Assembly: GCA_030647955.1 (NCBI GenBank)
Contig: JAUSIQ010000004.1
Location: 36,533-100,532, forward strand
Length of the DNA stretch: 64,000 nucleotides
Source of the DNA: a bacterium
Lineage (GTDB): Bacteria; Patescibacteriota; Minisyncoccia; 2-02-FULL-40-12; IGHO2-12-FULL-4
Direction of reading: 5' to 3'
Below the pieces are notes generated by a model that worked only from the letters and a program-made list of their open reading frames with translations, was not told the origin of the DNA and searched no databases. Position numbers and translations under genes: made by a program. Shown here one piece after another: positions 1,561-28,329 of this stretch; positions within the stretch are counted from its first letter, which is position 1; each line of letters starts with the position of its first letter.

Positions 1561-2154
1561 TTATTTGGTTGGAAGCTTGGTGGGATCAATGTCGCGGACC
1601 TGGAGAATAAAATTAACGAAATCACGAACGGCTCCGTGACCACCCTCGCGTTCGGAAATAAACAGGGCGTTATCTTTAGCCACTCTTTCGGCTTGGGCGG
1701 GAGCGGCGGGCAAGATCACTTTTTTAAGTAAGGGAAGGTCCACTAGATCGTCACCCATAGCGGCACATTGTTTCCATGTGAGGCCGTGGCTTTGTAACCA
1801 GACGTCAACCGCTTCGACTTTCCCTTCGCCATGCCGGCCGCTGAATAAGCTAATCAGTGACCATCCTTGAGGATTTTCCGGTCTCCATGACGATGGTAAA
1901 TTATTCCATTTTTCTACGGCTTGCCTAATAGGTTCGGCGGATTCATCGGCATCGGCAGTGACAAAACATACTCTTAAGCCGATCGCTCGCAGGAGAGATA
2001 TTCCTTGGCCGTCATAATAACTGCGAATTTTAACTTTGTAAGGAAGACCGTCCCAGACGCGGTTATCGGTCATCACACCATCCACATCAAATGCCACGGC
2101 TTTTATGATTCGGGCATAGGTCATGGCATACGGCTTAATGATCTGCATTATCAA
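1561..2154 (-). CDS. HAD-IIIA phosphatase, KdsC family (3-deoxy-ulosonate-phosphate phosphatase-like)
   Basis: AFDVDGVMTDN motif I (DxDGV). Size about 190 aa, typical of KdsC/Kdn-9-P phosphatases. Confidence 0.7.
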   Translation of the reverse strand: MIMQIIKPYAMTYARIIKAVAFDVDGVMTDNRVWDGLPYKVKIRSYYDGQGISLLRAIGLRVCFVTADADESAEPIRQAVEKWNNLPSSWRPENPQGWSLISLFSGRHGEGKVEAVDVWLQSHGLTWKQCAAMGDDLVDLPLLKKVILPAAPAQAERVAKDNALFISEREGGHGAVRDFVNFILQVRDIDPTKLPTK

Positions 2155-10767: not shown

Positions 10768-10790
10768 ACCGTGAAAATTTTCACGGTCAG
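10768..10790 (-). terminator. Rho-independent terminator after the GHMP kinase gene
   Basis: Perfect palindrome CCGTGAAAATTTTCACGG followed by a T-run on the minus strand. Confidence 0.55.
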
Positions 10791-11779
10791 TAGGGATTGA
10801 AATGGATTGCTTTGCTTCCACCACAATCAAATCCAAAAGGGACAGAGATCAGGTTTTTTAGTTTTTCTTTGACTTGTTCTTGGAGTTCGGGTTTAATAAA
10901 AAAAAGCATAAATCCACCGCTTCCTGCTCCTAATAATTTTCCACCTAAGGCGCCAGCTTGTTTAGCGGCAGCATAGACCTCGTCAATTATAGAGGTGGTG
11001 ATATTTGAAGCCAGGGTGCGTTTAATTTTCCAAGCCTCATCCAGTAACTGACCGAAGTCTTCCATGTTGGCGTTGCTTGTTAGGATGTGGGCGCCCTCTT
11101 CGACCATTTGGAATAATTCTAAAAGTTCAGTTTTATTTTGAGAAACATTTCTAATCTGTTCTTGGGCAATCACCGATGCTTCTCGAGGAAAATTCACGAA
11201 GAAGAGCATGAGATGATTTCTGAATAGATTTAATCGGGGAGCGGAGAGGATAAGGGGGGAGACTCGAAAAATATCTGGTCCTCCGAAATCGATACGATTA
11301 AATCCTCCAAAAGCTGCTATGGTCTGATCTTGCGATCCGACGTTTTCTTTAATAATCTTTTGTTCAATGTGGATAGCTTCCATGGCTAATTGTCTCGGAT
11401 TGATTATTTCTCCCTTGAGACCGTGCAGGGCTTTTAGCAGTCCGACAGTGAAAGCAGAGCTAGAACCCAATCCTGCTCTCCCGGGAAGATCGGCAAAATA
11501 ACTAATGCCCAAGTGTCTATCATTACCGAGATATCTAATCACTTCACGGGCGGAAGGATGTTTAATGTCATCGATCTTTTGAGCTTTTTCCAATTCAGAG
11601 TAGGCAATCCAAAAACGATAGTCCGTGGTAAATGGTTTAGAAAAGTTACAGGTAATATAGCAGTATTGATCGATGGCAGTAGAAATTACTGCTCCAGGAC
11701 CATAGTTTTCATACCAGGCGGGATAATCAGTCCCGCCTCCTAAAAAGGAGATACGGAACGGAGTGCGGGTGACGATCAT
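10787..11779 (-). CDS. GHMP-family sugar kinase (HddA/fucokinase-like)
   Basis: PGRAGLGSSSAFTVGLL is the GHMP ATP-binding motif. 330 aa. Confidence 0.75.
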   Translation of the reverse strand: MIVTRTPFRISFLGGGTDYPAWYENYGPGAVISTAIDQYCYITCNFSKPFTTDYRFWIAYSELEKAQKIDDIKHPSAREVIRYLGNDRHLGISYFADLPGRAGLGSSSAFTVGLLKALHGLKGEIINPRQLAMEAIHIEQKIIKENVGSQDQTIAAFGGFNRIDFGGPDIFRVSPLILSAPRLNLFRNHLMLFFVNFPREASVIAQEQIRNVSQNKTELLELFQMVEEGAHILTSNANMEDFGQLLDEAWKIKRTLASNITTSIIDEVYAAAKQAGALGGKLLGAGSGGFMLFFIKPELQEQVKEKLKNLISVPFGFDCGGSKAIHFNPY

Positions 11780-11863: not shown

Positions 11864-13198
11864 CTAGTTTTTAGCGCGCCAGTTTTTTAATTGACGATGA
11901 ATAGACAGAACCCAAGAGCGGGGCAAAATGGATTTTGCCACGTTTCTTAAATACTGACGGATGATTTTAATAGCTTCGGAAATCTGCCATAAAATAAATT
12001 CTCCTCTGAGCATAGGCCAGAGCTCGCGCAGACTGCGAGGGTTTTTGCGCGTGATGATTTCTTGTAGAAATTTTTTGCGGACACAGAGATAATGAACGGG
12101 TCCGGATAAGAAATTCCAAGTCAGAGTAAGCCGCGGATTGTTTTCAAGAACCTTCAGACAAGTATTGATCCAATGCGGGTCATCGTACTGTTCGCCAGGA
12201 GGGCAGATAAAAATATATTCTCCTCGAGATTTTTCTAGGGCTTCGTTAATAGCCATAACACCATTGTTGGTGATTACCACGTGCTCAAAATTTCTATAAG
12301 ATTGTTTGGCGAGACTCTCTTTCGTTTTAGCCAACCTGATTCCGTCCAGATCAGTCCAACTTATTATTGAGGCTTTTGGAATACGAGTATCCCAGGCGGG
12401 GTCGAATTTTTCCTGTACGGCTAGAAGCTTCAAGCAATGATCGTAACTGATGGTGGGGAAGGGGGTATAAAGGCTTTGTTCCGAACAGTTCAATATTTCA
12501 ATTGGTTTTATGGAATGGGTCCGGTAGATATGGTGAATAGTGGGTGGTACTACCGGATTGAAGAATTGGTTAGTGTCACGGATCAGGGCAGTCACTGGTT
12601 CGGAGCCGTATTCTTGGGGGCGATAGTAGGTCTCCGTACCCTTCAGGGTGGCCCCATCCGCGCCAAAGAGGATGATTTTGGATGCTCCGCCGACCGTGGC
12701 GAGGTAAATTAATTGGGCGAGGGTGTTACCAATCATAAAATGCAATGGATGGGTGATATTGGGCACGCCCTGGCTTCGACTAATGCCGATAAAAAGCAAC
12801 TTGGGATCATATCGGTGGATAAAGTTTTCCAAACTAAAATCGGGACCGAGTAGTTCCGGTTGGCTTTCAAAGAAGGAAGAGGTGAACATGTTTTCATCGC
12901 TACGGTGGAGAAACTCCTCAATCTTGTCAATGACAGGCGGCAATCCGCGATTGATGCCGGCCATCACCACCGAAAAATGCTTGTTTATTTTCTGTAAAAT
13001 ATGGTTCTCCTGGACGAAAAAAGTGTTCATTCCAAAATAGCAGATGTCTGCTTCGCGCAGTTCTCCGATTCTTTTTTCCAGCTCATTAATAGACGGTCCG
13101 GCGGCTAAAATAGCTACGGGGCGACCGTTAATGATTTTTCGAAGATGGGCGAGACGCTTTTCGGTAAATGGCAAATAATCGGGAGAGTTGAAATTCAT
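11864..13198 (-). CDS. DUF115 / motility-accessory-factor (Maf)-like protein, putative nonulosonic-acid transferase, with a degenerate GT2-like C-terminal region
   Basis: RPVAILAAGPSINELEKRI resembles the MptE-like/DUF115 GxGPS motif. The C-terminal segment YRNFEHVVITNNG...GEYIFICPPGEQYDD is GT2-like. Confidence 0.5.
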   Translation of the reverse strand: MNFNSPDYLPFTEKRLAHLRKIINGRPVAILAAGPSINELEKRIGELREADICYFGMNTFFVQENHILQKINKHFSVVMAGINRGLPPVIDKIEEFLHRSDENMFTSSFFESQPELLGPDFSLENFIHRYDPKLLFIGISRSQGVPNITHPLHFMIGNTLAQLIYLATVGGASKIILFGADGATLKGTETYYRPQEYGSEPVTALIRDTNQFFNPVVPPTIHHIYRTHSIKPIEILNCSEQSLYTPFPTISYDHCLKLLAVQEKFDPAWDTRIPKASIISWTDLDGIRLAKTKESLAKQSYRNFEHVVITNNGVMAINEALEKSRGEYIFICPPGEQYDDPHWINTCLKVLENNPRLTLTWNFLSGPVHYLCVRKKFLQEIITRKNPRSLRELWPMLRGEFILWQISEAIKIIRQYLRNVAKSILPRSWVLSIHRQLKNWRAKN

Positions 13199-13204
13199 AG
13201 TAGT

Positions 13205-14146
13205 CTAGGCTTTAGAGGCGACGATAAAGATGTTGGAGGTTATGCGGTGATGGGACAATATATCTTTGTATTTCTGATCAGCATCTTGGATAAGCTGATT
13301 TATCTCCCGACTAGCTTTGGGAGAAAACCCAGAAAAGTTAATTTGAGGCTGGGAAAGACCGAAAGATGAATTAGACTGAGGGGCGTTATTAAAATACCAG
13401 AAGAAGTGATTGAAAAAATTATAGTCCTGCAGAAAATACATTTTATCGATTTTAAAACCCGCTTTTTGACAAAGCTTTTTCAAGCTTTTTGGAGAAAAAT
13501 AGAAGGTATGGGCATCGTGAAAGTAAAATTTACGATAAGCATCCGCCGGCCATAAACTTAGCAGGGCGTCGTGAAGATTGGGAACCTCAATAAACACCTT
13601 TCCGCTAGGGCTTAAAAGATCTTTAGCTTTAGCTAAAAATTGAAGTGGGTTTTGGATGTGCTCTAATGTCTGAAAAGCGGCGATATAATCGAATTTTTTT
13701 TCTTGGAAGTCACAATTTTCCAATGGATCGGTTTTAACCTCAAGGCCGAATTTTTTTTGCACATACCGGGCGCAATGCGTATCCAGTTCTACGCCCGCGC
13801 ACATTTTAAATCGGTCTTTTACTTGAGAAATAAATTGACCAGCCGAACAACCCACCTCCAGGAATGTTTTTTTCTTGCTAAAGAATCTTTTAATAATTCT
13901 TAATCTGTCTCCCTGGAAATTTTTTTCAGTTCTAAATATACCCTCTGGTTTAGAATTTGGTTTTTCTAAATTATTGCTGTGATTTTTTCGGTAATCTTCA
14001 GTGTAATATTGTTTGACGTTAATCTTTTTCTCCTCCAAGATTCCTAATTGGCAAGATGGACAATGAAATACGCGTCGAGATGTACCATCCCGTAGTTGCT
14101 TGGTAAGGATATTCAGTTTGGGCTGCTGACATATAAGACAGATCAT
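13205..14146 (-). CDS. Class I SAM-dependent methyltransferase with N-terminal zinc-ribbon (sugar C/O-methyltransferase-like)
   Basis: CLICQQP...HCPSCQLG zinc ribbon. FLEVGCSAGQF SAM motif I. Confidence 0.7.
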   Translation of the reverse strand: MICLICQQPKLNILTKQLRDGTSRRVFHCPSCQLGILEEKKINVKQYYTEDYRKNHSNNLEKPNSKPEGIFRTEKNFQGDRLRIIKRFFSKKKTFLEVGCSAGQFISQVKDRFKMCAGVELDTHCARYVQKKFGLEVKTDPLENCDFQEKKFDYIAAFQTLEHIQNPLQFLAKAKDLLSPSGKVFIEVPNLHDALLSLWPADAYRKFYFHDAHTFYFSPKSLKKLCQKAGFKIDKMYFLQDYNFFNHFFWYFNNAPQSNSSFGLSQPQINFSGFSPKASREINQLIQDADQKYKDILSHHRITSNIFIVASKA

Positions 14147-14425: not shown

Positions 14426-15169
14426 CTACTGCTTTGATGAATAGTTACTGGATAAGTAACGCCAAAGTGGTCCTGGATCTCGGTTTAGCTCGAACTCTAA
14501 GAATTCCCAATCGCGAGGGTTGTCTGCCTCTGTGGCGTGAGAGGTGGAAAAGCCCAAGATTTTCAGACCAAATGCGGTTTGGTTATTAAGAAGAAATTCC
14601 TGGCGAACAATATCCACGTAACCATTGGGAATATACGCCTTGGGAAATAATTGTCTTGGGAGGCTGTGATATTCTGGGCGGGGATCGTCAGGAAAATATC
14701 CCGAAAAAAATCCTTGGGCATCGATGTGAAACATCTTTTGGGGTGGTTCTGCCGCTTCATGCCCGGAACGAAGAGAATCAGCCTGAGGGTTGACGAGGAA
14801 CTGTTTGGTAGCTTCATCGATTATCGTTGGGTCACGAAAAGGAGTGGTGGGTCTTAAATATACCCAGGTCGTAGGCGCCGTATCGTTTTCAGTAAACCAC
14901 TCTGCCGCATGCCTCAAGGGCGGAAAATCAGCTGAAGAATCTTGGGCAAATTCACTCGGTCTTAAAAATGGAGTCTCTGCTCCAAAGCTTCTGGCAATGA
15001 TCGCAATTTCCTCGGAGTCGGTAGAAACAATCGTGCGGGTGATTTTTTTGGAAAGGCGAGAGGCGATAATCGAGTAGGCGATGAGCGGAAATCCGCCTAG
15101 AAGTTTTATATTTTTTTTGGGAATGGCCTTTGATCCAATGCGAGCGGGAATAAGGGAATAAGTTCCCAT
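14426..15169 (-). CDS. Acylneuraminate (nonulosonate/ulosonate) cytidylyltransferase, CMP-sugar synthetase family (NeuA/KdsB-like)
   Basis: MGTYSLIPARIGSKAIPKKNIKLLGGFPLIAYSI N-terminal signature of CTP_transf_3. Confidence 0.75.
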   Translation of the reverse strand: MGTYSLIPARIGSKAIPKKNIKLLGGFPLIAYSIIASRLSKKITRTIVSTDSEEIAIIARSFGAETPFLRPSEFAQDSSADFPPLRHAAEWFTENDTAPTTWVYLRPTTPFRDPTIIDEATKQFLVNPQADSLRSGHEAAEPPQKMFHIDAQGFFSGYFPDDPRPEYHSLPRQLFPKAYIPNGYVDIVRQEFLLNNQTAFGLKILGFSTSHATEADNPRDWEFLEFELNRDPGPLWRYLSSNYSSKQ

Positions 15170-15253: not shown

Positions 15254-16129
15254 TTACAGAGTTTTCTTTCTTCGAAGTTTTTTCTCAATAGGTAACTCAG
15301 AGGCTAGTACGATTTTTTCGGCCTTACCAAGATATGCAGGTAAGGCTCTAATTTCAGTTGCTAAGCGGCCCATGCCCCCTACTTCCAGGCTGGCGGCTTG
15401 GTCCGAGCCCCACATGGCTCGATCAAGAGTAATGTGGCGTTCAACAACACAAGCTCCCAGGGCGGCTGCCACTAGGGAAGGATACGCTCCTACTTCATGA
15501 CCGGAATAACCGATCGGTACTCTCGGATATTTTTTAATGAGTCTCGGAATGTTGGCTAAATTCAATTCCGAAGGATCTGCCGGGTAAGTGGAGGTGCAGT
15601 GCAAAATTACCAATCCCTCTTCTCCTAACAAACTGACCATGCGTTCAATCGCCTGATCGTCCGCCATACCAGTAGAAAGAATTATGGGGCGGCCCTTTGA
15701 TCTGACGTGGATTAAAAGGTCTTTGTCCAGGTTACAGGCCGAAGCGATTTTGTAGCAAGGAGGATTGTAGAAATCTAAGAAATCAACACTAGCTTCATCC
15801 CAAGGAGAGGCAAACCACAAAATTCCTTTTTCTTCGCAATAAGCATCAATTTCATCATACTGCTCTTCGCTAAATTCCAAGCCCCGCTTGAGGTCGCCAT
15901 TGGTGGGACCAAAAGGATTTTCGCGCGGACGAGCCAGCTCTTCCGGTGTGTAAACCACATCCACCGTTCTCTTTTGAAATTTCACCGCATCCCATCCGGC
16001 CTTTACGGCCTCATCAATTAATCTCTTGGCAATATTGATATCGCCGTTATGATTGATGCCAATTTCACCAATAAGAAAACACGGTTGGCCCGGGCCAACT
16101 AATTTATTTCCGATCCATACAGTACCCAT
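15254..16129 (-). CDS. NeuB-family nonulosonic-acid (sialic/Kdn/legionaminic-type) synthase
   Basis: GQPCFLIGEIGINHNGDINIAKRLIDEAVKAGWDAVKFQKRT is the NeuB TIM-barrel signature. 291 aa, so it lacks the C-terminal SAF domain. Confidence 0.8.
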   Translation of the reverse strand: MGTVWIGNKLVGPGQPCFLIGEIGINHNGDINIAKRLIDEAVKAGWDAVKFQKRTVDVVYTPEELARPRENPFGPTNGDLKRGLEFSEEQYDEIDAYCEEKGILWFASPWDEASVDFLDFYNPPCYKIASACNLDKDLLIHVRSKGRPIILSTGMADDQAIERMVSLLGEEGLVILHCTSTYPADPSELNLANIPRLIKKYPRVPIGYSGHEVGAYPSLVAAALGACVVERHITLDRAMWGSDQAASLEVGGMGRLATEIRALPAYLGKAEKIVLASELPIEKKLRRKKTL

Positions 16130-16228: not shown

Positions 16229-17182
16229 TTAAGAAGAGAGTGGAGGCCAATGGGCGGGATCAACCTGCCTTGGATCATCAATAGCCAGCAACCTCAGCTG
16301 AGATAAAATTTCCTCCCAAAGAGGGCCGGGGGAGGCGGCATTGACCGCAGCCTTTAAGTGCCCGACTTTATTGGTCCCAATCAACGAAGAAGCAATGCGA
16401 TTTTCAGAGGCGACGAAGCAAATAGCCAGTTGTGGTAGGCTCATGCGATGCTTTTTGGCAATCTTTTCCGCTATAGCAGAGTGCTCTTTGAGTTTTTCAA
16501 GACTTGGAGGGAGTTGGTGCACCAAGGGAGTTAGTGATCCTTTTAATAAAACAGAGCGATTAATCACTCCAATATTATTGCGATGCGCTTCGGCTAAAAC
16601 TTCTTTAGCCATTCGCTGATCAAGAATACTATAAGCTACCTGGATAACATCAAAGAAGCCCGTCCTCACGGCTGCCAAGGGGGCTTCTTCACCCCTTGTG
16701 CTAATGCCGGTGTATCTAATTTTACCTTTGTCTTTAAGGTTTTGTAGGATGTCAATCAGTAAACCACTCTCAATTTGCCCTCGAGATCCACCATGAAGAT
16801 AAAGCAGTGGCAGAGAATCTAATTGTAGTTTTCTTAGACTATCTTCCACTTGTTCTTCAATCCTTTTTTGAATCTCGAGAGGTTCGAGTAATTCTCCTTG
16901 TTCTAGGAATTGACCGCATTTGGTTCCCACTAATACGCCTTTTATTTTGGCGATGCCCGATCTCCCAATGCGCTCTTCGGCCAGTTGATAAAAGTTAGCC
17001 GTGTCGAAATAGGTAATGCCCAAATCTACGGCGGTATTAAGAATGTTCTCTGCTTCCTCTTCGGTCGGTAAAGAACGAGAACCAATACCATAAGCAAAGC
17101 CGATTTCTGCTGTTCCGAGGCCAATTCTAGAAATTTTATACTCAGTTCTTCCTAGATGTCGGTAGTTTCCACAGTGGCCCAT
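16229..17182 (-). CDS. Aldo/keto reductase
   Basis: AKR-family N-terminus IGLGTAEIGFAYG. 317 aa. Confidence 0.8.
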   Translation of the reverse strand: MGHCGNYRHLGRTEYKISRIGLGTAEIGFAYGIGSRSLPTEEEAENILNTAVDLGITYFDTANFYQLAEERIGRSGIAKIKGVLVGTKCGQFLEQGELLEPLEIQKRIEEQVEDSLRKLQLDSLPLLYLHGGSRGQIESGLLIDILQNLKDKGKIRYTGISTRGEEAPLAAVRTGFFDVIQVAYSILDQRMAKEVLAEAHRNNIGVINRSVLLKGSLTPLVHQLPPSLEKLKEHSAIAEKIAKKHRMSLPQLAICFVASENRIASSLIGTNKVGHLKAAVNAASPGPLWEEILSQLRLLAIDDPRQVDPAHWPPLSS

Positions 17183-17200: not shown

Positions 17201-18034
17201 TTACCAACAAGTTCTTCCACCGTCTATAACTAGATTAGCCCCGGTCATATAAGCAGAAGCATTGGAACATAAAAAAAGGATAGCGGCTTTGTACTCATCT
17301 CCGTTGGCCATACGGCCCATGGGGATGAGGTTAGTGAGTCTCTGCACGAAGTCATCTTCTAGGCCGGTATTGTAGATTCCGGCGGGAGAAATAGCGTTCA
17401 CTCTGACTCCTTGGTCGGCCCAATAGGTTGCCAAATATTTTGTTAACCCGATCAGGGCATGCTTGATAACCGAATAGCTCACGGGTTTAACCTGGTGCTC
17501 TCCGGGCTTATCTCCTTCCTTCTGATAAATACGCTGGTCGGGAGCGATGATGGCCAAATCCGAGGCGATGTTTAAAATCACCCCCCTTTTATTTCTAGCC
17601 ATGTGCTGACCGATAACGCGGCTCATGATTAAAGCTCCGGTAACGCTTACCGCAAAATCTTTGTTCCACGCTTCGATCGGCATATTCTCTAAACGACTAA
17701 GATTTTTCCCGCCACCTTCTACTACGGGATTGTTTGCAGCGTTATTGATTAATATTGAGATGGACCCAATTTCGCGAATAATGCGGCTTATAACACGAGT
17801 AACTTCTTTTTCTTTGGTGATGTCCAAGGTGTATCCCCAGACTTTTCTGGGGTAGGAAAATGGAAAATACTGCAAGGCTTTCCCGATGGCTTTATCGTTA
17901 ATATCCAATAATACTACTCGACCATTGCCGTCGAGAATGGCTTCGGCATGTTTTTTGCCCAGGAAACCGGCTCCACCGGTAATGACGGCCAAGTCACCTT
18001 CCAAATCAAACTTGCGAATAGTGCCAAAGGTCAT
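17201..18034 (-). CDS. SDR-family oxidoreductase
   Basis: AVITGGAGFLGKK cofactor motif and YSVIKHA (YxxxK). Confidence 0.75.
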   Translation of the reverse strand: MTFGTIRKFDLEGDLAVITGGAGFLGKKHAEAILDGNGRVVLLDINDKAIGKALQYFPFSYPRKVWGYTLDITKEKEVTRVISRIIREIGSISILINNAANNPVVEGGGKNLSRLENMPIEAWNKDFAVSVTGALIMSRVIGQHMARNKRGVILNIASDLAIIAPDQRIYQKEGDKPGEHQVKPVSYSVIKHALIGLTKYLATYWADQGVRVNAISPAGIYNTGLEDDFVQRLTNLIPMGRMANGDEYKAAILFLCSNASAYMTGANLVIDGGRTCW

Positions 18035-18035
18035 A

Positions 18036-18857
18036 TTATCCTCCTGTTTTAGTCCAGATTTCTTTTACGAAATCCAATTGTCGTTTGGCATCGCCGATAT
18101 AATCTTCTCCGCGCCAGGCTTGTAGAACGAATAGTCCGTCAAAGCCAATGTCATGAAGAGCACGAAAGCACTCTTCGAAATTAACGTCACCCTCACCCAA
18201 GTAAACTGATTGCGTGGAGCCAACTTTGCGATCTTTGAGATGAACCTGTTTAATCATCTTCCCGAGCAGGCGAATGTCTCGCGGCAGATCGTGGCCTAGA
18301 GTAATTAGATTGCCGGTGTCGTAACAGGCGCCAATGCGGGCATCGTCAAAAATTTCAATAAACTCTCGTAACTCATCTCCAGGTAGTTCGGTTTCCAGAG
18401 CAAGTTCAATCCCCAAACCATCGATGTCTTTAAGAAAGCGAGTTAAGCAGGCAAAAACATCGATTTTGTCACGTAGAGTTTTGATTGTAAACTCTTCTAA
18501 GATCGGAATACCGATTAGTTTTATTCTTGAAGAAAAAGCTCCAACTGCTGCACGGCGAAGTATCCTAGAGATTTTTTCATGGGCATTTCTCGTTAGCCGG
18601 TTTTTCATAAAGTAATCGGCGCAGATGGAGTGTACTGGGGTGCCAGACTCTTCAACAATTTTATTGATCATTTCTGACCCAATGTTTTTTTCGATGGGGT
18701 TGTAGTAGCGATCATCCCAGTCCCAAACCCACTCAATGCAATCAAAGCCAAGTTGTTTAGCAATAGGAAATTCTTTTTGCCAGTCTTTGGGAAAAAACTG
18801 CAGGCGTCCGTCTTGAGATGGTGAAAGCCGGCTTTGCATAATACCGAATTTGGCCAT
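18036..18857 (-). CDS. Sugar-phosphate isomerase/epimerase, xylose-isomerase-like TIM barrel
   Basis: AP-endonuclease-2/xylose-isomerase-like TIM-barrel features. 273 aa. First gene of the minus-strand operon. Confidence 0.65.
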   Translation of the reverse strand: MAKFGIMQSRLSPSQDGRLQFFPKDWQKEFPIAKQLGFDCIEWVWDWDDRYYNPIEKNIGSEMINKIVEESGTPVHSICADYFMKNRLTRNAHEKISRILRRAAVGAFSSRIKLIGIPILEEFTIKTLRDKIDVFACLTRFLKDIDGLGIELALETELPGDELREFIEIFDDARIGACYDTGNLITLGHDLPRDIRLLGKMIKQVHLKDRKVGSTQSVYLGEGDVNFEECFRALHDIGFDGLFVLQAWRGEDYIGDAKRQLDFVKEIWTKTGG

Positions 18858-18979
18858 AGTAATCTCCTTGTCAAGGAACGAAATTCTGGCGCAAATTTAA
18901 CATAAACCTTGCTAGTAGGCAACTTTTTAGATATGGTTTTTATTAGAGAGATTCGATCTTTGACAAAGAAGGAGCGACG

Positions 18980-20746
18980 ATGAGCGCCTCAGGATTAGTT
19001 ATGATTAATCTCCCTCGATTTCCGGGCGGAGGGCATACGCATCCCGCCGAGGTAATTGCGGGTATTAAGCCTGCCGATTTGGCCGGGTTAAAAATAGTTT
19101 TTATTAATATGCCTTTGCGTGAGACAGCTGTTCCGAATACGACCCCCGAAGGTCCGTTACTGATGGCCACTAATCTTCGAAAGAATTACGGCGTATATGC
19201 CACGGTTATCGATCTCAATGCTTATCGGATTAAAGACGAGCTGGCCCAAAACAAAGGTTTGACTCATGGGCGACATTTAACACCCGAGGAAACCTTCGAA
19301 TTAATCCAGAAGCATTTTTTGGTTCATGGCGAACCCGACGTGGTGGCTTTATCTGGCATGATCACTACTCTGCGTTGGCAGGAAGCGGTCACGAAGATGA
19401 TCAGAACTATTTTGCCGGATGTTTTTCTGGTTTCTGGCGGTGGTTTGGCAACGGAGCTGAAGGCCGGTCTGTTTAACTATATCTCTGGTCTTGATGCGGT
19501 GGCGCACTCCGAAGGGGACGATGTCGTCGTGAAAATTTGTTTTGATGCCCAGCTGATTAAGAGAAAAGGATTTAACGGAGCATTGCTGGCCGGGAATCTT
19601 GAGCCTTACTATCTTGGTTATACTAAAGGCCGACATCGGCTGATGTACGCCGGGGACCGGCCTCGTGATTTGGATAGTTTGCCTTTCGCTGATTTAGATT
19701 TATTGGCAGAAGATGTGAATGGACACAAGATTCTAGATTATTATTTAGGTAATGATGTCTGGGGTATTGGAGCGAATAATAGCTCCGCCACACCATTTCA
19801 AATGACGCGTAGTACGACTTCGGTTTCTTCGCGGGGTTGTCCCTTTGCCTGTCAGTATTGTTATCGTGGCGCGCAGGGCGAAAGAAAGTGGGGCGTGCGT
19901 TCGGCTGAACATATTTATAAAGAGATGCTTCACCATCAGGAAAAATACGGCATTGATTTCAAGGGATTTCCCGATGATAATTTTGCTGTGACCATTGGAC
20001 GGATTGTGGATTTAGTTCCTCTGCTTGGTCCTTTGGGGATTCGTTGGGGAACTCATACTCGACTCGACGAAGCGGCCGGTCTTAAGCCGATCAGTAGTCG
20101 TCCAGGAGAGTATGTTTTTGAAGATCCACATCGTATCGAGCTGATGGCCAAAGCGGGCTGTGTCTACATCGGCTTTGGTCCCGAGAGCGCTAACAAAGAA
20201 GTATTAGAGGCGATTGGTAAGGGTGGGCATACTTTGACTAACGGATTTGTCCCAAAAGTCGTCAACGGAAAAACATATAATTTCGCTCGCTCGATGATTG
20301 TGGGAATTGAAAACTGTTTGAGATTTGGAATCCATTCCAACTGTACCTGGATTATGGCTCTGCCGACTGAAAATCTCGAACGCTTAAAGGAATCTGTGGC
20401 CTTTATCAAATGGCATGAGGATCTCTATATTCAAAATGGATTGCCAACTGATTCCGTGAATAAAAAAATGTTTACGTTGACCTGGTATCCCGGAACGGAA
20501 ATTATTCGGCATACCAAAGTCAGACAGGAATTGACGAGAGTTTTTGGTGTTACCTTTAACGAGAGATTAGAACCGATTTGTGACGAGAAGTTTTATAAGT
20601 ATTTAATTGAGCTGGACGATGCTACTAAAGTTCTCTACGGTAATAACGATGAGCCGTTGAACTTTGGAGATATGCCCATGGACCAGTTTCTTCAGGCTCG
20701 AGAATATGTCGACTCCGATCAAATTTTCAAAATTTTAGAAATGTAA
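18980..20746 (+). CDS. B12-binding-domain radical SAM enzyme (class B; putative sugar C-methyltransferase/epimerase)
   Basis: CPFACQYC CxxxCxxC radical-SAM motif at about residue 285. It follows an N-terminal region of about 280 aa consistent with a cobalamin-binding domain. AAGGAG RBS. Confidence 0.7.
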   Translation: MSASGLVMINLPRFPGGGHTHPAEVIAGIKPADLAGLKIVFINMPLRETAVPNTTPEGPLLMATNLRKNYGVYATVIDLNAYRIKDELAQNKGLTHGRHLTPEETFELIQKHFLVHGEPDVVALSGMITTLRWQEAVTKMIRTILPDVFLVSGGGLATELKAGLFNYISGLDAVAHSEGDDVVVKICFDAQLIKRKGFNGALLAGNLEPYYLGYTKGRHRLMYAGDRPRDLDSLPFADLDLLAEDVNGHKILDYYLGNDVWGIGANNSSATPFQMTRSTTSVSSRGCPFACQYCYRGAQGERKWGVRSAEHIYKEMLHHQEKYGIDFKGFPDDNFAVTIGRIVDLVPLLGPLGIRWGTHTRLDEAAGLKPISSRPGEYVFEDPHRIELMAKAGCVYIGFGPESANKEVLEAIGKGGHTLTNGFVPKVVNGKTYNFARSMIVGIENCLRFGIHSNCTWIMALPTENLERLKESVAFIKWHEDLYIQNGLPTDSVNKKMFTLTWYPGTEIIRHTKVRQELTRVFGVTFNERLEPICDEKFYKYLIELDDATKVLYGNNDEPLNFGDMPMDQFLQAREYVDSDQIFKILEM

Positions 20747-20753
20747 AAAAATA

Positions 20754-20775
20754 CCCCGCCGTGGCGGGGTTTTTA
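20754..20775. terminator. Bidirectional rho-independent terminator between convergent genes
   Basis: CCCCGCCgtgGCGGGG flanked by A-run and T-run. Confidence 0.7.
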
Positions 20776-20777
20776 GT

Positions 20778-22070
20778 TTATTTAGTTTCGTCTTCGATAG
20801 CGACACTCCTAATCGCTTCGGATACAACATCGATCGCTTCATAAAGAGCATGGGCGTCAATGGTCAGTGGCGGAGCTAGTTTAATAGAGTGCTTAAAAGT
20901 ACAGACCGGCAGGACGCCATTCCCAATGCATTTCATGACTACGCGAGTAGCCGCATCGGTATCGTGGAAAATCAGTCCAGCAATCATGCCTCGCACATTA
21001 ACCATCTTGACTAAGGGAAATCTTATCAGGCCCTCGAGTCCGGCCTGGAAAATATTCATCGTTCTTTGGCGTTCGGCGATAAAGTTCGGATCGCTTAAGA
21101 ATTCAATGTTAGCCAGTCCGGCCGCACAACAGAGCGGATTGCCCGAATGAGTGCCATGCAAATCCGCTTCTTTATCATCGATAATTTCTGCCCTGCTTAA
21201 GACGGCTGAAAGAGGCAGAGAGGAGGTTATGCCTTTTCCTAAGCAGATAATATCGGGCTGAAGATCGCCGTAAGTCATATAACCGTACAGTGGTCCCAGG
21301 CGATAAAATCCAGCCTGCATCTCATCGAAACAAACCAGCGCACCGGAATTTTTGGCAAAAGCATAGAGAGAGTCGATATATTGCTGAGGATAGAACCAGG
21401 CGCCCCATCCCTGGAAAGTTTCCAAAAAGAAGCCGGCAATTTGATCTGCCGGAATTTGGTCTCCAGAAGGAAGGCGAAGGCTCTTTGGATCAAAGCGATC
21501 ATTGGCGCGATAGGGGAAGTCGAGAAAGATCACGTCGCTATCTTTTACTCCCGACCAGTCTCCCTTTTCCGGACTCCCGCAAATGAAATCATTACCCAAA
21601 CCTTGGCCGTGATAGCTTCCGCGGAAGGTAATGATATATCGGCGATGTTGCTTTTTGGCCCATAGTTTGACGAGCTTGTAAGCGGCACCCATTACTTCCG
21701 ATCCCGAGTTTAGTAAGAGGGCTTTGTTGAAGTGCGGAGGAGAGAGCTCCAATAATTTAGACAGAAACTTTTGACGAATATCGGTGGGATAGGTGTAGGA
21801 GAAAAGCAGATTTGCGTCGAGTTGTTTCTTGATGGCCTCTATGATGAAAGGATTGGCGTGACCAGCATTAGCCACAAAAATCCCCGAGGTCATGTCAATC
21901 CACTTATTGCCGTGGTCGTCAAAAACAGAAAAGTCTACGGCTTTATTCCAAGTAATTGGAGTACCATTGGCGGCTAAATGCGGTTCCAGGTCCCAAAGTT
22001 TTTTATAAAGCTCATCTTTTTGGAGAACAAAACCATCTTGAATTTCGCGATAGCGAGTCTTAATAGCCAA
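20778..22070 (-). CDS. Class III PLP-dependent aminotransferase
   Basis: VFDEMQAGFYRLG and GKGITSS motifs carry the conserved Lys. 430 aa. Confidence 0.75.
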   Translation of the reverse strand: MAIKTRYREIQDGFVLQKDELYKKLWDLEPHLAANGTPITWNKAVDFSVFDDHGNKWIDMTSGIFVANAGHANPFIIEAIKKQLDANLLFSYTYPTDIRQKFLSKLLELSPPHFNKALLLNSGSEVMGAAYKLVKLWAKKQHRRYIITFRGSYHGQGLGNDFICGSPEKGDWSGVKDSDVIFLDFPYRANDRFDPKSLRLPSGDQIPADQIAGFFLETFQGWGAWFYPQQYIDSLYAFAKNSGALVCFDEMQAGFYRLGPLYGYMTYGDLQPDIICLGKGITSSLPLSAVLSRAEIIDDKEADLHGTHSGNPLCCAAGLANIEFLSDPNFIAERQRTMNIFQAGLEGLIRFPLVKMVNVRGMIAGLIFHDTDAATRVVMKCIGNGVLPVCTFKHSIKLAPPLTIDAHALYEAIDVVSEAIRSVAIEDETK

Positions 22071-25293: not shown

Positions 25294-27051
25294 ATGAAAC
25301 AAGAAACAAAAAATCCAATTTATATCCTAGGTATTTCTTGTTTTTATCACGACTCTGCGGTCGTGCTGATTAAAGATGGGCAACTCATCGCCGCGGCACA
25401 AGAAGAGAGATTTACCAGAAAAAAACACGATGATAGTTTTCCGGCTAAAGCGGTGGAGTACTGTTTGAAAGAAGCAGGTATTACTCCGGCCAATTTATCT
25501 TATGTAGCATTTTATGATAAACCGCTTTTGAAATTTGAGAGGATTGTTACCAGCTTCATTAATTCCTGGCCGCATGGCTACAAAACTTGGTTAAGAGCCA
25601 TGCCGGTCTGGTTAAAAGAAAAACTTTGGACAAAAGTGGCGATCAGTAAAAATTTACCCGGATACAACGGGCCGATCTATTTTACGGAGCATCACATGTC
25701 GCATGCCGCCAGCTCCTTTTTCGTTTCTCCTTTTAAGGAGGCGGCGGTTTTAACAGTGGATGGGGTGGGGGAGTGGGCCACCACTACTTGGGGAGTGGGG
25801 AAAGAAAATAAAATCGAATTAAAAAAAGAAATTCACTTTCCGGAATCGCTCGGTCTTTTTTATAGCATCCTTACCTATTATTTGGGCTTTAAGCCGAATA
25901 GCGCGGAGTATAAGGTGATGGGATTGGCGCCCTATGGTCATCCCAAGTATGTAGAGGTGTTAAGAAATTTGATTAAGATTTATGCGGACGGTAGTTTTGC
26001 TTTGAATAAAAAAGTTTTCAAAGGATTTTATGAACTGGGCGGATTTGAAAAAGCTTTGGCTCGCTACTTTGGTTTTGAGAAAAGAAAGCCGGAAGATCCT
26101 TTGGAACAGAAGCACAAGGACCTGGCGGCTAGTCTGCAATTTATTACCAACGAGGCGATGGTGACCATGGCTAAGCACATTCAAAAAGAAACCGGTTTGG
26201 AAAATTTATGTATGGCCGGCGGAGTGGCCCTGAACTGTGTGGCGAGCTCGGAAGTTTTAAAAAAGTCCGGGTTTAAAAATATTTTTATCCAGCCGGCGGC
26301 GGGGGATGCGGGCGGGGCTTTGGGTGCGGCCTATTACATCTGGCATCAGGTTTTGGGGAACTCAAGAGATTTTGTGCAGAAGCACTGTTTTTATGGTCCG
26401 GAGTTTGGCGACGAACAGATCAAAATCATGCTCGATAAAAAAGAGGTGGTGGCAGAGCATTTAGCAGATGAGTGGTTATTTAATAGAGTGGCTCAACTGA
26501 TTGCCGATCAAAAAGTGATCGGCTGGTTTCAAGGCCGCATGGAGTGGGGTCCACGATCTTTAGGAGCTAGATCCATTTTGGCGGATGCACGCAATAAGGG
26601 AAATTGGCAGAGAGTTAATCTGAAAATTAAATTTCGAGAAAGTTTCCGGCCGTTTGCCCCCAGTGTTTTAGAAGAAGATTCTTTGGAATATTTTGATTTT
26701 GTGGAGCCAGCTCCGTACATGCTTTTCACCGCCAAGGTAAAAAAAGACGATGTGCCGGCCGTAACGCATGTGGACAAAACAGCGCGTTTGCAAACAGTGA
26801 ATCAGGAAACTAATCCGCGCTATCATCGCTTAATCTCGGAATTCAAAAAAATAACCGGTTGCCCGGTAATTATTAATACCTCTTTCAATGTGCGAGGCGA
26901 GCCCATTGTCTGCACTCCCGAAGATGCTTTTAATACATTCATCAAAACCGATTTGGATTTTCTGGTTCTTGGTAATTATCTCTTAGACAAAAAAGAGGTC
27001 ATTAAAAAATATCCCTTCGTCCCTCCTCAAATTTCCTCTTCGGCCGATTAG
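25294..27051 (+). CDS. Carbamoyltransferase (NodU/CmcH family)
   Basis: ILGISCFYHDSAVVLIKDGQLIAAAQEERFTRKKHD is the Carbam_trans_N signature. 585 aa. Confidence 0.85.
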   Translation: MKQETKNPIYILGISCFYHDSAVVLIKDGQLIAAAQEERFTRKKHDDSFPAKAVEYCLKEAGITPANLSYVAFYDKPLLKFERIVTSFINSWPHGYKTWLRAMPVWLKEKLWTKVAISKNLPGYNGPIYFTEHHMSHAASSFFVSPFKEAAVLTVDGVGEWATTTWGVGKENKIELKKEIHFPESLGLFYSILTYYLGFKPNSAEYKVMGLAPYGHPKYVEVLRNLIKIYADGSFALNKKVFKGFYELGGFEKALARYFGFEKRKPEDPLEQKHKDLAASLQFITNEAMVTMAKHIQKETGLENLCMAGGVALNCVASSEVLKKSGFKNIFIQPAAGDAGGALGAAYYIWHQVLGNSRDFVQKHCFYGPEFGDEQIKIMLDKKEVVAEHLADEWLFNRVAQLIADQKVIGWFQGRMEWGPRSLGARSILADARNKGNWQRVNLKIKFRESFRPFAPSVLEEDSLEYFDFVEPAPYMLFTAKVKKDDVPAVTHVDKTARLQTVNQETNPRYHRLISEFKKITGCPVIINTSFNVRGEPIVCTPEDAFNTFIKTDLDFLVLGNYLLDKKEVIKKYPFVPPQISSSAD

Positions 27052-27094
27052 TGCCGATCTGTTTTTTCATGCCAAAAATGATAAAATTGAAGAA

Positions 27095-28177
27095 ATGGAC
27101 TTGTCGAGTAAAAAGAAAATTATCTTTTTTAATTTGCTGACCTTTGCGGGAGTTTTTGTGGTGCTGATTGGATTTTTTGAAATTGGTTTGCGGTTGGTCG
27201 GACGGACGAGTGATAATTTCCTAAAGCAGGATGCGGTGTTGGGATGGACGCATGTGCCGAATAAGAAAGGATGGTCGGTGACTAGAGAGTATCGGGTGCC
27301 GGTGCAATTAAATAATTTTGGTCTAGTAGGGCCGGATACTAGCTTAGAAAAACCAGCCGAGACCTTTCGCGTTGCTTTTGTAGGAGACTCTTTCACCGAA
27401 GCTTTTCAGGTAGAGACTGAGGCAGCCTTTCCGCGCGTAATCGAAAAACGGGTAAATGATTTGGGTAAAAAAGTTGAGACTCTGAATTTTGGAGTGACGA
27501 GCTATGGGACAGTCAAGGAGGACTGGGTAATTAAAAATAGTGCCCTGAGATTCAATCCTGATTTGATAGTGTTGGGATATTTTGTCGGGAATGATTTTGC
27601 GGATAACTTAGCCGGAGACATTAATCCGACCGCACAGTTCAGCTCGAGGAAAAAGTTTACTAATAGCGTAAAGCTATGGTTCAGAAATCACTCCGTGGCT
27701 TATCGCTGGTTTTTAGAAAAAAAATCTCGCAACGCCTTCCTGAGCGATCCTGCTCCCGTTTTTGTTCCGGCTATTTATGGTCCTAATTCCATTTTTGGAT
27801 CAAAATATTCTTCCGCTGCGGAGGAAGGGATGGCTAAAACGAAAACTTATTTAAAAAATATCAGCGATATTCTAAGAGAGCAGGATATTAATTTTTTAGT
27901 TTTAATTTTGCCGGCCAAGGAACAGGTGCATGAAAGGTTACGTTCTTCGGAGGATAGCAATCTCGACTGGGAAAAGCCGAATAGAATGTTAAAAGAATTT
28001 TTTGAACAAGAGAAAATCGCTTATCTTGACACATTGCCAACTTTTCAATCTTGGGCTAAGATCAATCCAGAAGGTTTGGCTTTCTTTAAATTTGATGGCC
28101 ATCCTAATGAAACCGGTCATTTTCTTATTGCGAAAGGCATTTTAAATTATCTAGATCAATATTTTTATGGAAAGTAA
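27095..28177 (+). CDS. Membrane-anchored SGNH/GDSL hydrolase-fold protein
   Basis: N-terminal TM helix. Block I VAFVGDSFTE. Block III GYFVGNDFADN (GxND). Block V FDGHPN. Confidence 0.6.
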   Translation: MDLSSKKKIIFFNLLTFAGVFVVLIGFFEIGLRLVGRTSDNFLKQDAVLGWTHVPNKKGWSVTREYRVPVQLNNFGLVGPDTSLEKPAETFRVAFVGDSFTEAFQVETEAAFPRVIEKRVNDLGKKVETLNFGVTSYGTVKEDWVIKNSALRFNPDLIVLGYFVGNDFADNLAGDINPTAQFSSRKKFTNSVKLWFRNHSVAYRWFLEKKSRNAFLSDPAPVFVPAIYGPNSIFGSKYSSAAEEGMAKTKTYLKNISDILREQDINFLVLILPAKEQVHERLRSSEDSNLDWEKPNRMLKEFFEQEKIAYLDTLPTFQSWAKINPEGLAFFKFDGHPNETGHFLIAKGILNYLDQYFYGK

Positions 28178-28328: not shown

Positions 28329-28329
28329 C

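Follow-up and report, generated by a model that had tools for sequence, protein, structure and literature searches.

A putative cobalamin-type radical SAM enzyme in a Patescibacteriota glycan locus and its possible role in tailoring a CMP-activated ulosonic acid

What would a radical SAM (rSAM) enzyme do inside a locus for a cell-surface glycan, and on which molecule would it act? This question is raised by a gene in a 64-kb stretch of bacterial DNA, referred to here as the window. The initial annotation of the gene proposed a cobalamin-dependent sugar-tailoring enzyme embedded in a glycan locus, and the embedding was confirmed: a ~40-kb glycan locus (~600 to 41000) surrounds the gene and contains genes for NeuB, a CMP-sugar cytidylyltransferase, Wzm/Wzt, a flippase, GT2, Wzy_C-TPR and a priming transferase, as well as a GDP-mannose dehydratase, DegT and an RmlC-like gene. 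No tRNA was found within the 64-kb window. To our knowledge, a radical SAM enzyme is not part of any ulosonic-acid pathway described so far.

The gene, its protein and its family

The rSAM gene and the elements within and around it are as follows.

18858..18979: intergenic region of 122 bp from which the sugar operon (minus strand) and the rSAM gene diverge, with the AAGGAG at 18969-18974
18980..20746, plus strand: rSAM gene, B12-domain type, 588 aa
19085..19579, plus strand: N-terminal Rossmann/flavodoxin-like cobalamin-type domain, ~residues 36-200, placed by Pfam, TokK alignments, secondary structure and motif conservation
19811..20407, plus strand: radical SAM partial TIM-barrel core, ~residues 278-476
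19838..19861, plus strand: [4Fe-4S]/SAM cluster motif C287-P-F-A-C291-Q-Y-C294
20417..20743, plus strand: C-terminal domain, largely helical and ~110 residues long, containing one Cys
20753..20770: hairpin ACCCCGCC-GTGG-CGGGGT, flanked by a T-run on either strand and thus an intrinsic terminator for both directions, where the rSAM and aminotransferase genes converge

The ORF begins with ATG, and AAGGAG, a strong ribosome-binding site, ends 5 nt upstream of it. The Logan gene call also gives 588 aa, and the NCBI call (MDO8495058.1) uses Met8 as the start, for a protein of 581 aa. Both flanking genes (18036-18857 and 20778-22070) are on the minus strand, so the gene does lie opposite to its neighbors, as first described. 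It is not a chance ORF because hundreds of full-length homologues exist, with 45-70% identity and E = 0; the best of them are from Yanofskybacteria (70% identity).

The protein is a member of the radical SAM superfamily. It has a CX3CX2C motif (C287-x3-C291-x2-C294), a partial TIM barrel with structural matches to BioB, LipA, PFL-AE, HemN and others, and a match to Pfam Radical_SAM (PF04055) at residues 283-476 (E 3.8e-15; 56.9 bits against a cut-off of 29.5) that is shared by 63/63 family members. The CPFACQYC motif had been placed at about residue 285 and runs from C287 to C294. All three Cys are unchanged throughout a set of 63 close and 22 cross-phylum sequences; the R285-G286 directly before the motif is also invariant, and R296 follows two residues past it. 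The AF2 model has a pLDDT of 90.4 and a pTM of 0.90.

The region ahead of the cluster, which had been assigned to a B12-binding domain from its size and position, proved to be an N-terminal Rossmann-like domain of the B12 type. Pfam B12-binding (PF02310) matches residues 117-184 with an E of 7e-07 and 29.5 bits, slightly under the cut-off of 32.1, and it is found in 48/63 family members at E<=1e-3. The C-terminal domain is kept within the family, with N494, F498, T501, Y503, P504, D547 and K550 as invariants. Since it holds a single Cys, it has no SPASM/twitch auxiliary-cluster motif. The initial annotation had raised the prospect of anaerobic sulfatase-maturase (anSME) relatives, and none turned up: there is one Cys after residue 480, SPASM was not matched in Pfam or NCBIfam, and anSME was not among the structural matches listed. 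An anSME/SPASM maturase was therefore rejected.

The curated B12-rSAM equivalogs compared were BchE, HpnJ, HpnR, PhpK, ApyD, BzaD, TsrM-type, KedN5, ladderane and TIGR04295. No NCBIfam cut-off was reached by the protein or by its nearest sister proteins (~440 aa). The best scores, 49 bits for BchE (cut-off 481) and 45 bits for HpnJ, were all far under the cut-offs. Literature searches that paired radical SAM enzymes with nonulosonic/ulosonic acids, their synthases (NeuB, sialic acid synthase) or Patescibacteria yielded no pertinent paper. The protein thus belongs to an uncharacterized family with no curated model or known paper, and it remains an uncharacterized member of a very large, mostly uncharacterized enzyme class. 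The family is plentiful in Patescibacteria and is also present in cultured Roseibium and at least five further lineages. The enzyme had been framed as a B12-requiring step in a small-genome organism, and this framing is too narrow, as Roseibium, Polyangiaceae and others carry the family.

Cobalamin-binding signatures

Motifs for cobalamin binding were taken from the structures of OxsB, TsrM and TokK and scored in the 63 close and 22 cross-phylum sequences, where they were invariant or nearly so. The downstream motif on the beta3-alpha3 loop, A123-x-S125-G126-M127-I-T129-T130 (A123-L-S125; family form [A/G]-x-S125-G-[K/M]127), aligned to A70-x-S72 of TokK, and its Ser125 is present in 63/63 close and 20/22 cross-phylum sequences. 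Position 127 is Lys in about half of the family and Met in about half and, therefore, the lower face of the cobalamin is not clearly of one type. The Gly-Gly motif, G153-[G/N]-G155 (G153-G-G155 here), is invariant and aligned to V-A-G-G of TokK; this motif lies on beta4 and shapes the pocket for the dimethylbenzimidazole tail. S177-E178-G179-D180 aligned to G-E-G-E of TokK, with Glu178 invariant and G179-D180 a conservative variant; it is the candidate counterpart of the Gly-Glu motif that opens alpha5, although either Gly-Glu pair of TokK could be the defined one. R285, before the first Cys, is at the position of TokK R204, which touches the cobalamin tail, and R296, two residues after the third Cys, is at the position of OxsB R323.

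The lack of a DxHxxG-like motif had been suggested as a sign against cobalamin binding. The beta1-alpha1 loop (residues 44-56, 13 residues) has no His, and a His occurs there in 1/63 and 0/22 sequences. This is expected, since the solved B12-rSAMs all bind cobalamin base-off/His-off without DxHxxG, and the motif is therefore not a valid test of B12 binding.

Sequence comparisons led to the same class of enzymes. The protein shares its three-part architecture with the C-methylases TokK, CysS and ThnK (PDB 7kdx, 9n1b). For the N-terminal domain, sequence comparison gave a single significant partner, residues 59-127 of TokK (E 9e-5 to 7.6e-10): the family profile matched TokK at 7.6e-10, and the profile of the N-terminal domain, searched against the PDB, found the TokK cobalamin domain (9e-5) as its sole relevant match and did not match AprD4. 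The A-x-S, GG, H-x-E-G-[E/D] and R-G-C...CX3CX2C motifs all line up with TokK. The NCBIfam models whose matches reach the N-terminal domain are methylases, HpnR (117-186) and rSAM_ocin_1 (115-324). AprD4 and ArsL demonstrate that a B12-type domain alone is not proof of cobalamin binding. No cobalamin transport or salvage genes were found within the 64-kb window, and a literature search on cobalamin use in CPR yielded nothing useful.

Gene neighborhood in the window and across orthologous loci

The following neighbors in the window bear on the substrate.

1561..2154, minus strand: HAD phosphatase resembling KDN-9-P phosphatase and KdsC
11864..13198, minus strand: 444-aa protein with a weak, sub-cut-off MptE/Maf-like (DUF115) match (E 4.8e-4)
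13205..14146, minus strand: SAM methyltransferase of class I whose N-terminus carries a CxxC...CxxC Zn ribbon
14426..15169, minus strand: CMP-sugar cytidylyltransferase, PseF/KdsB-like
15254..16129, minus strand: NeuB-family PEP-condensing ulosonate synthase, 290 aa (Pfam NeuB, 2.2e-71)
16229..17182, minus strand: aldo-keto reductase, a locus-specific accessory (3/35 loci)
17201..18034, minus strand: SDR of the gluconate-5-dehydrogenase/KduD-like sugar-acid type, one gene away from the rSAM gene
18036..18857, minus strand: xylose-isomerase-like TIM barrel, best match L-ribulose-5-P 3-epimerase, divergent from the rSAM gene
20778..22070, minus strand: class III aminotransferase, ArgD/BioA-like, a locus-specific accessory convergent with the rSAM gene

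All the ulosonic-acid partner enzymes in the window score under the curated equivalog cut-offs, including those for NeuB and PseI. The NeuB-like protein matches sialic and pseudaminic acid synthases in the PDB and lacks the C-terminal part of the NeuB/PseI models. The window shares a NeuB synthase, a HAD, a PseF/KdsB-like CMP-transferase and Wzm/Wzt or a flippase with the NeuB/PseI/LegI and the KDN-9-P/Kdo-8-P routes. It differs from these routes in its short NeuB (290 aa) and in a conserved core without PseB/PseC- or LegB/LegC-type genes. The class III aminotransferase and the SDR together could aminate the sugar acid. The 444-aa protein may be the transferase for the CMP-sugar; it had no NCBIfam match and no similarity to the TagF-like and flippase proteins seen repeatedly at the other loci.

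Conserved synteny was examined in the 35 orthologous loci whose flanks extend 6 kb or more in each direction. Partners were counted by per-reference BLAST/phmmer, because single-linkage clustering of stop-to-stop ORFs merged NeuB, cytidylyltransferase and SDR. The NeuB-like synthase is the most conserved pathway partner (31/35 loci), and the CMP-sugar cytidylyltransferase was found in 29/35. The cytidylyltransferase gene mostly adjoins or overlaps the rSAM gene outside the window, as seen in Roseibium, Polyangiaceae, Opitutia, Sphingomonadales and many CPR loci, and an overlap of the rSAM gene with a partner gene is seen in Roseibium. A KdsC/KDN-9-P-phosphatase-like HAD is present in 18/35 loci, usually far nearer to the rSAM gene than in the window. 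The SDR also occurs in 18/35, often directly adjoining the rSAM gene. It is not an obligate partner, since the loci of Roseibium, Polyangiaceae, Planctomycetota, Opitutia, Nitrospirae and Sphingomonadales showed no SDR in their flanks. The xylose-isomerase-like TIM barrel was counted in 7/35 full loci and 17 loci overall. In 23 loci from relatives with ~25% identity, NeuB was found once and the cytidylyltransferase not at all. Among the orthologous loci, two had no NeuB within 10 kb (L021, L023) and one had none of the partners (L022).

This synteny strengthens the sugar-tailoring role first proposed and changes its likely substrate. An NDP-sugar had been suggested; the conserved partners, NeuB, cytidylyltransferase, HAD and SDR, point to a CMP-activated ulosonic acid instead of an NDP-hexose. 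The class III aminotransferase and the Zn-ribbon methyltransferase had been put forward as partners next door. The Zn ribbon is real, and its gene lies five genes away; neither gene is conserved, as the aminotransferase occurs in 4/35 loci and the window-type Zn-ribbon methyltransferase in 3/35. Class I SAM methyltransferases as a class do recur in the loci.

Candidate reactions and their significance

Four things are established: the fold of the protein, its cluster motif, its motifs for cobalamin binding and the gene linkage kept across loci. From these we infer the cobalamin occupancy, the substrate, the site of attack and the outcome of the reaction. The near-universal siting of the gene beside genes for the synthesis and CMP activation of a sugar acid indicates that the enzyme probably modifies an unreactive carbon of a sialic-acid-like surface sugar acid. 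The best explanation, to which we assign a probability of about 0.42, is that this rSAM protein, cobalamin-type (class B) in architecture, is devoted to tailoring an ulosonic acid (sialic-acid-, KDN- or Kdo-like) that depends on NeuB, is CMP-activated and feeds a cell-surface glycan, and that it acts most likely as a C-methylase. In the proposed mechanism, a [4Fe-4S] cluster on C287/C291/C294 would reductively cleave SAM, and the resulting 5'-deoxyadenosyl radical would attack the sugar acid at an unactivated sp3 carbon and remove a hydrogen there. Cobalamin, held base-off/His-off in the N-terminal domain, would then finish the reaction. The likeliest outcome would be methyl transfer from methylcobalamin, e.g. 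-CH2OH to -CH(OH)CH3 as in GenK and Fom3.

GenK, GenD1 and Fom3, all class B rSAM methylases, offer a functional analogy: their targets are sp3 carbons that are unactivated and bear a hydroxyl. GenK and GenD1 methylate carbons of aminoglycoside sugars, and Fom3 methylates C2 of CMP-linked cytidylyl-2-hydroxyethylphosphonate. The Fom3 substrate is made by a cytidylyltransferase, and a gene for such an enzyme is the close companion of the rSAM gene here; by analogy with Fom3 acting on a CMP conjugate, the substrate would most probably be the CMP ester. The comparison is one of function, since the three enzymes have no detectable specific sequence relation to the rSAM protein, and they serve actinomycete antibiotic pathways instead of cell-surface ulosonic acids. 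We know of no C-methylated ulosonic acid.

The GenK/Fom3-type methylation of the initial annotation therefore stands as a reasonable first guess and is not a given. In TokK, W76 lies under the cobalt and W215 between the cobalamin and the cluster, and such Trp residues are a hallmark of TokK-type radical methylases. By sequence alignment, these positions are taken by Thr129 (invariant) and Arg296 (62/63 and 22/22), an environment closer to the polar ones of TsrM and OxsB, which do not methylate by a radical route. Membership in the TokK/CysS/ThnK-type subclass was rejected because this Trp pair is missing, and methylase activity as such is untouched by the rejection. Sugar methylation also does not need an rSAM enzyme, since several class I SAM methyltransferases are already in the clusters.

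One alternative is that the enzyme binds cobalamin without methylating, like OxsB, HpnJ or BchE, and catalyzes a rearrangement, ring contraction, oxidation or epimerization with cobalamin as an electron sink or radical relay instead of a methyl carrier. The cobalamin motifs are as compatible with this as is the small or polar lower face, a feature of enzymes without radical methylation. OxsB (PDB 5ul4), the top Foldseek match (6.5e-15), likewise has an Arg after its Cys motif, at the position of Arg296 (Cys-loop+2), and a small/polar residue below the corrin, and the top NCBIfam scores are those of BchE and HpnJ. However, these similarities are all weak and generic to the superfamily, and OxsB differs in its 16% identity, extra N-terminal domain, CX4CX2C motif and nucleotide substrate. 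The Lys/Met split at position 127 also leaves the lower face without a clear type, and the prior favors methylation since most characterized members of the class are methylases. We consider a non-methylating reaction unlikely, though a serious rival to C-methylation.

Another serious rival, of similarly low probability, is a cobalamin-independent 1,2-diol dehydratase like AprD4, which would deoxygenate the ulosonic acid with the SDR as its AprD3-like ketoreductase. The product could be a 9-deoxy acid like legionaminic or pseudaminic acid, with a sugar phosphate as the starting material, and the B12-like domain would be structural or substrate-binding. AprD4 (PDB 6fd2) had the highest fold similarity of all to the rSAM protein in structure comparison, has a Rossmann-like domain yet no cobalamin, and partners the NADPH-dependent reductase AprD3. 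An SDR in half of the loci, many of them CPR, and the polar Thr129 and Arg296 in place of the TokK Trp residues are consistent with such an enzyme, and freedom from cobalamin would suit organisms unable to make B12. Against it, the cobalamin-binding motifs are all invariant across phyla, and the N-terminal domains (in proteins of ~455 aa and 588 aa) have no detectable similarity, with the domain profile finding TokK instead of AprD4. The NCBIfam AprD4 model (NF033070) gave 17.1 bits against a cut-off of 500 (E 0.0019), in the core (272-408) only. The aligned AprD4 stretch, SFGCPYPCRFYC, is CX3CX3C, and its first Cys is not preceded by Arg, whereas RGCPFACQYC here is R-G-CX3CX2C. Finally, the loci of six lineages do not have an SDR in their flanks. 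A function unrelated to the sugar acid, as a protein, lipid or cofactor modifier or an anSME/SPASM-type maturase, would agree with the monocistronic opposite-strand gene with its own ribosome-binding site and terminator and with loci L021, L022 and L023, but is very improbable given the NeuB and cytidylyltransferase linkage across at least six phyla and its absence from the loci of distant relatives, the gene overlap in Roseibium, and the lack of a SPASM/twitch Cys cluster and of anSME matches in Pfam, NCBIfam and the PDB.

Nonulosonic and ulosonic acids (sialic, legionaminic, pseudaminic, Kdo, KDN) are key surface determinants, and we know of no nonulosonic or ulosonic pathway that uses radical chemistry. 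The place of the rSAM gene in the operon logic of a NeuB and CMP-transferase pathway, in hundreds of Patescibacteria and in cultivable Roseibium, points to an undescribed modification and a new substrate class. Tentatively, and with somewhat less than even odds, the family may carry out radical C-H functionalization of a CMP-activated ulosonic acid (C-methylation, deoxygenation or rearrangement) and so define an unrecognized class of sialic-acid-like sugars. If tailoring of a CMP-activated ulosonic acid is the correct reading, the biosynthesis of nonulosonic or ulosonic acids would gain its first radical SAM step. Such sugars would be displayed on the surface of a large fraction of Patescibacteria and some free-living bacteria, e.g. 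Roseibium, and many ultra-small, cofactor-scavenging bacteria would spend scavenged B12 on a surface glycan. The question is testable by genetics and glycan mass spectrometry because orthologues are present in Roseibium hamelinense ATCC BAA-252. The family thus gives a handle on the surface sugars of CPR bacteria and on their dependence on scavenged corrinoids.

Architecture and family of the radical SAM protein

The gene has the following features, and both flanking genes (18036-18857 and 20778-22070) are on the minus strand, in agreement with the opposite orientation noted in the initial annotation.

18969-18974, AAGGAG, five bases before the radical SAM ATG
18980-20746, plus strand, radical SAM gene, 588 aa, ATG start
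20753-20770, bidirectional hairpin terminator, right after the radical SAM stop codon

A Logan gene call also has the 588-aa form; the NCBI call of the same gene starts at Met8, giving 581 aa (MDO8495058.1, annotated 'radical SAM protein'). The CPFACQYC motif, previously placed near residue 285, was found as C287-x3-C291-x2-C294. Pfam matched Radical_SAM to residues 283-476 (E 3.8e-15) and B12-binding to residues 117-184 (E 7e-7; 29.5 bits, slightly below the gathering score of 32.1). An AlphaFold2 model built from the 63-sequence family alignment (pLDDT 90.4, pTM 0.90) had three parts: a beta/alpha domain (approximately residues 38-200), a radical SAM barrel (approximately residues 278-476), and a C-terminal domain that is largely helical and, having just one Cys, carries no SPASM/twitch cluster. 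The best 17 Foldseek matches in the PDB were all B12-domain radical SAM enzymes (OxsB at 6.5e-15, TsrM, TokK, AprD4, CysS, and MgmA), and generic radical SAM enzymes appeared only from E-values of at least 7e-5. The tabulated fold comparison gave values of 22.7 for AprD4, 21.6 for TsrM, 20.1 for CysS, 18.8 for MgmA, 16.4 for TokK, and 15.4 for OxsB. In AprD4, a radical SAM 1,2-diol dehydratase, the Rossmann-like domain binds no cobalamin (PMC12931638). Therefore, the fold proves the architecture and not the cofactor; the B12-domain architecture proposed in the initial annotation was confirmed, but its certainty about B12 was not. No new architecture is evident, and the protein belongs to a very large, mostly uncharacterised known class.

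There were 786 matches among the 5.8 billion proteins searched. The best 120 were full-length with 57-70% identity, and the named ones among these were Patescibacteria (Yanofsky-, Azam- and Parcubacteria). From these best homologues, the window is inferred to be patescibacterial DNA. Only 81 clusters among 1.84 billion cluster representatives had E<=1e-30; approximately 12 were full-length at >500 bits, and scores then fell to generic B12-domain radical SAM proteins of about 440 aa. No curated NCBIfam model covers the family or was reached by the protein (BchE, 49 bits vs a cut-off of 481; HpnJ, 45 bits vs 578), and the generic proteins likewise scored under every curated cut-off. Relatives were encoded in 569 stretches from one-genome-per-species contigs. 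Orthologues (45-70% identity) were mostly from Patescibacteria, with others in Roseibium, Polyangiaceae, Planctomycetota, Opitutia, Nitrospirae, Sphingomonadales, and a gammaproteobacterium. Across these phyla, 108 positions never vary, which suggests one conserved function.

Some homologues carry inteins inside the CX3CX2C cluster motif, matching window residues 287-294 (nt 19838-19861). The intein lies directly ahead of the third Cys in P0054 and P0057 (913 and 919 aa; CPFSCAF/C...HN/CYRG), ahead of the second Cys in P0132 (886 aa; CPFA/C...HN/CKFC), and ahead of the third in the distant relative P0165. Thus, a cluster-ligating Cys is the +1 splicing nucleophile, with two insertion sites.

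The putative cobalamin site

The initial annotation used a DxHxxG-like motif as a criterion for B12 binding. Solved enzymes of this class all bind cobalamin base-off/His-off, without that histidine (PMC12931638, PMC9204698), and the criterion is, therefore, inapplicable. The cobalamin motifs defined in a review (PMC9204698) were tabulated in 63 close sequences and 22 from across phyla, and were found to be invariant or nearly so, the Gly-Glu motif as a candidate placed by alignment.

Residues 44-56, long His-free beta1-alpha1 loop, 13 residues
A/G123-x-S125-G126-[K/M]127, then invariant T129-T130, downstream cobalamin-binding motif, beta3-alpha3 loop
G153-x-G155, Gly-Gly motif, beta4
S177-E178-G179-D180 (aligned residues), candidate Gly-Glu motif, alpha5
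R285, Arg before the first Cys
R296, Cys-loop+2 position, linking both cofactors

In TokK, the Arg ahead of the first Cys, R204, touches the cobalamin tail (PMC9204698). When the N-terminal domain was profiled by itself, the only match among the relevant PDB sequences was the TokK cobalamin domain (E 9e-5); AprD4 was not detected. The AprD4 NCBIfam model matched the barrel only (17 bits vs a cut-off of 500), and the aligned AprD4 stretch, SFGCPYPCRFYC, is CX3CX3C without the Arg, in contrast to R285 and CX3CX2C here. Because of the conserved motifs, the match to TokK and not AprD4, and the differing AprD4 model and cluster motif, the protein probably binds cobalamin. An AprD4-like enzyme, sharing the fold but not the cofactor, is unlikely. 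No cobalamin transport or salvage genes were found within the 64-kb window.

Linkage to ulosonic-acid synthesis and the surrounding glycan locus

ORFs were called in 60 orthologous loci and searched with the window proteins, and these partners were counted wherever each side had 6 kb or more of flank (35 loci). A NeuB-like synthase was present in 31 of the 35 and a CTP_transf_3 cytidylyltransferase in 29, followed by an SDR (18), a KdsC/KDN-9-P-phosphatase-like HAD (18), DegT (9), a TIM-barrel epimerase (7), an AKR (3), and a GHMP kinase (1). The partners named in the initial annotation fared poorly: the class III aminotransferase occurred in 4 loci and the Zn-ribbon methyltransferase in 3, and the latter exists in the window but lies five genes off rather than next door. 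TagF-like transferases (22 loci), flippases (20 loci), and SIS_2 isomerases (13 loci) also recurred. Among 23 loci of relatives at about 25% identity, NeuB was found in 1 and the cytidylyltransferase in 0, which makes the linkage a specific feature of this family. Contigs annotated with Pfam agreed, with the radical SAM gene divergent from NeuB, SDR, and HAD and the cytidylyltransferase directly downstream. The order in Roseibium sp. is NeuB, HAD, methyltransferase, (TylF-like methyltransferase), radical SAM, cytidylyltransferase, and the last two genes overlap. In Polyangiaceae and Opitutia this pair alone was detected, and it looks like the deepest unit.

This linkage upholds a sugar-tailoring role, and a radical SAM enzyme unrelated to sugar is very improbable. 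The NDP-sugar substrate proposed earlier was not upheld, as the conserved partners are predicted to make and CMP-activate an ulosonic acid. The window partners resemble NeuB/PseI, PseF/KdsB, KDN-9-P phosphatase/KdsC, L-ribulose-5-P 3-epimerase, and gluconate-5-dehydrogenase/KduD. Since all score under the NCBIfam equivalog cut-offs, the predicted pathway leads from a sugar phosphate to a CMP-ulosonic acid by a divergent route and differs from the classical Pse, Leg, and Neu pathways. Nothing was found in the literature searched linking a radical SAM enzyme to nonulosonic-/ulosonic-acid biosynthesis.

The Roseibium clusters keep an FNR-like FAD/NAD oxidoreductase (L042 5282-6322; L036 and L051 equivalents), a possible electron donor for the radical SAM enzyme or its cobalamin. 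They also keep a large 620-640-aa TPR protein beside an MCP-PilZ gene (L042 12494-14362; L036 and L051 equivalents), which hints that these cultivable hosts glycosylate flagellin or a surface protein. In Roseibium hamelinense (L051 6960-9290, minus strand), the NeuB domain lies inside a 776-aa fusion protein with an N-terminal CBS-pair region like that of arabinose-5-phosphate isomerase KdsD and about 300 C-terminal residues without assignment.

The large glycan locus spans approximately 0.6-41 kb of the window. It encodes NeuB, the CMP-sugar cytidylyltransferase, GHMP kinase, SDR, AKR, a sugar-phosphate-epimerase-like TIM barrel, Wzm/Wzt, a carbamoyltransferase, an SGNH protein, a flippase, GT2, Wzy_C-TPR, GDP-mannose dehydratase, a priming transferase, DegT, an RmlC-like gene, and a split transketolase-like pair.

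6952-8747, minus strand, split transketolase/E1-like TPP enzyme pair (310 and 296 aa), adjoining (with 3156-6314, minus strand) DJ-1/PfpI, cupin, HAD, DegT aminotransferase, RmlC-like epimerase, and NAD epimerase
10787-11779, minus strand, HddA-like heptose-7-phosphate kinase homologue, adjoining the 444-aa protein
11864-13198, minus strand, 444-aa protein, weak MptE/Maf-like (DUF115) match and no other
25294-28177, plus strand, NodU/CmcH-type carbamoyltransferase (585 aa), then SGNH/AlgX-like protein
28234-29658, plus strand, flippase ORF
29546-30772, plus strand, 408-aa ORF, no family match
31821-34094, plus strand, 757-aa protein, Wzy_C (O-antigen-ligase or PglL-like) domain fused to TPR repeats
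35227-36717, minus strand, 496-aa AAA_2 (Clp/Cdc48-subfamily) ATPase, between GDP-mannose 4,6-dehydratase and the priming sugar transferase

The TPP pair and its neighbours suggest that the locus encodes a second pathway, possibly making a branched-chain or amino-deoxy sugar. With the carbamoyltransferase and the SGNH/AlgX-like protein, the glycan probably bears O-carbamoyl and/or O-acyl groups as well. The DUF115 family includes flagellin nonulosonic-acid transferases; close relatives of the 444-aa protein and the HddA-like kinase were found in one other orthologous locus only. As listed, the flippase and 408-aa ORFs share about 110 nt; the latter probably starts further downstream, and its product may be a polymerase-like membrane protein. 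The Wzy_C-TPR protein, which recurs near the radical SAM cluster in other Patescibacteria (nine orthologous loci, among them L003 at 1-1901), could transfer the glycan onto a protein or lipid acceptor. It is unusual to find an AAA_2 ATPase among glycan genes.

Proposed reaction chemistry

The radical SAM enzyme would take hydrogen from a sugar-acid carbon that is not activated. Two points favour the CMP ester as the substrate: the gene is closely paired with that of the cytidylyltransferase, and Fom3 offers a precedent by acting on cytidylyl-2-hydroxyethylphosphonate (PMC8158854). Cobalamin would complete the reaction, most likely via methyl transfer, as GenK and GenD1 do onto sugar carbons (PMC5461906). 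A cobalamin-type methylase is, tentatively, given a probability of about 0.4.

Radical methylases have hydrophobic residues at the positions of TokK Trp76 (below cobalt) and Trp215 (between cluster and cobalamin), whereas TsrM and OxsB have polar ones (PMC12931638, PMC9204698). Here, these positions align with Thr129, which is invariant, and Arg296, respectively. Therefore, the protein is not a methylase of the TokK/CysS type, and the methylase reading as a whole becomes less probable, though still the likeliest. At position 127, equivalent to MetH Leu806, OxsB Asn186, and TsrM Arg69, the family is split about evenly between Met and Lys. Other cobalamin-dependent chemistry, by a non-methylating enzyme like OxsB, is supported by the polar lower face and by Arg296, as OxsB also has Arg at Cys-loop+2; such chemistry is rated as unlikely as an AprD4-like reaction. 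Since a cultured host, R. hamelinense ATCC BAA-252, carries an orthologue, the family is a well-defined, testable lead.
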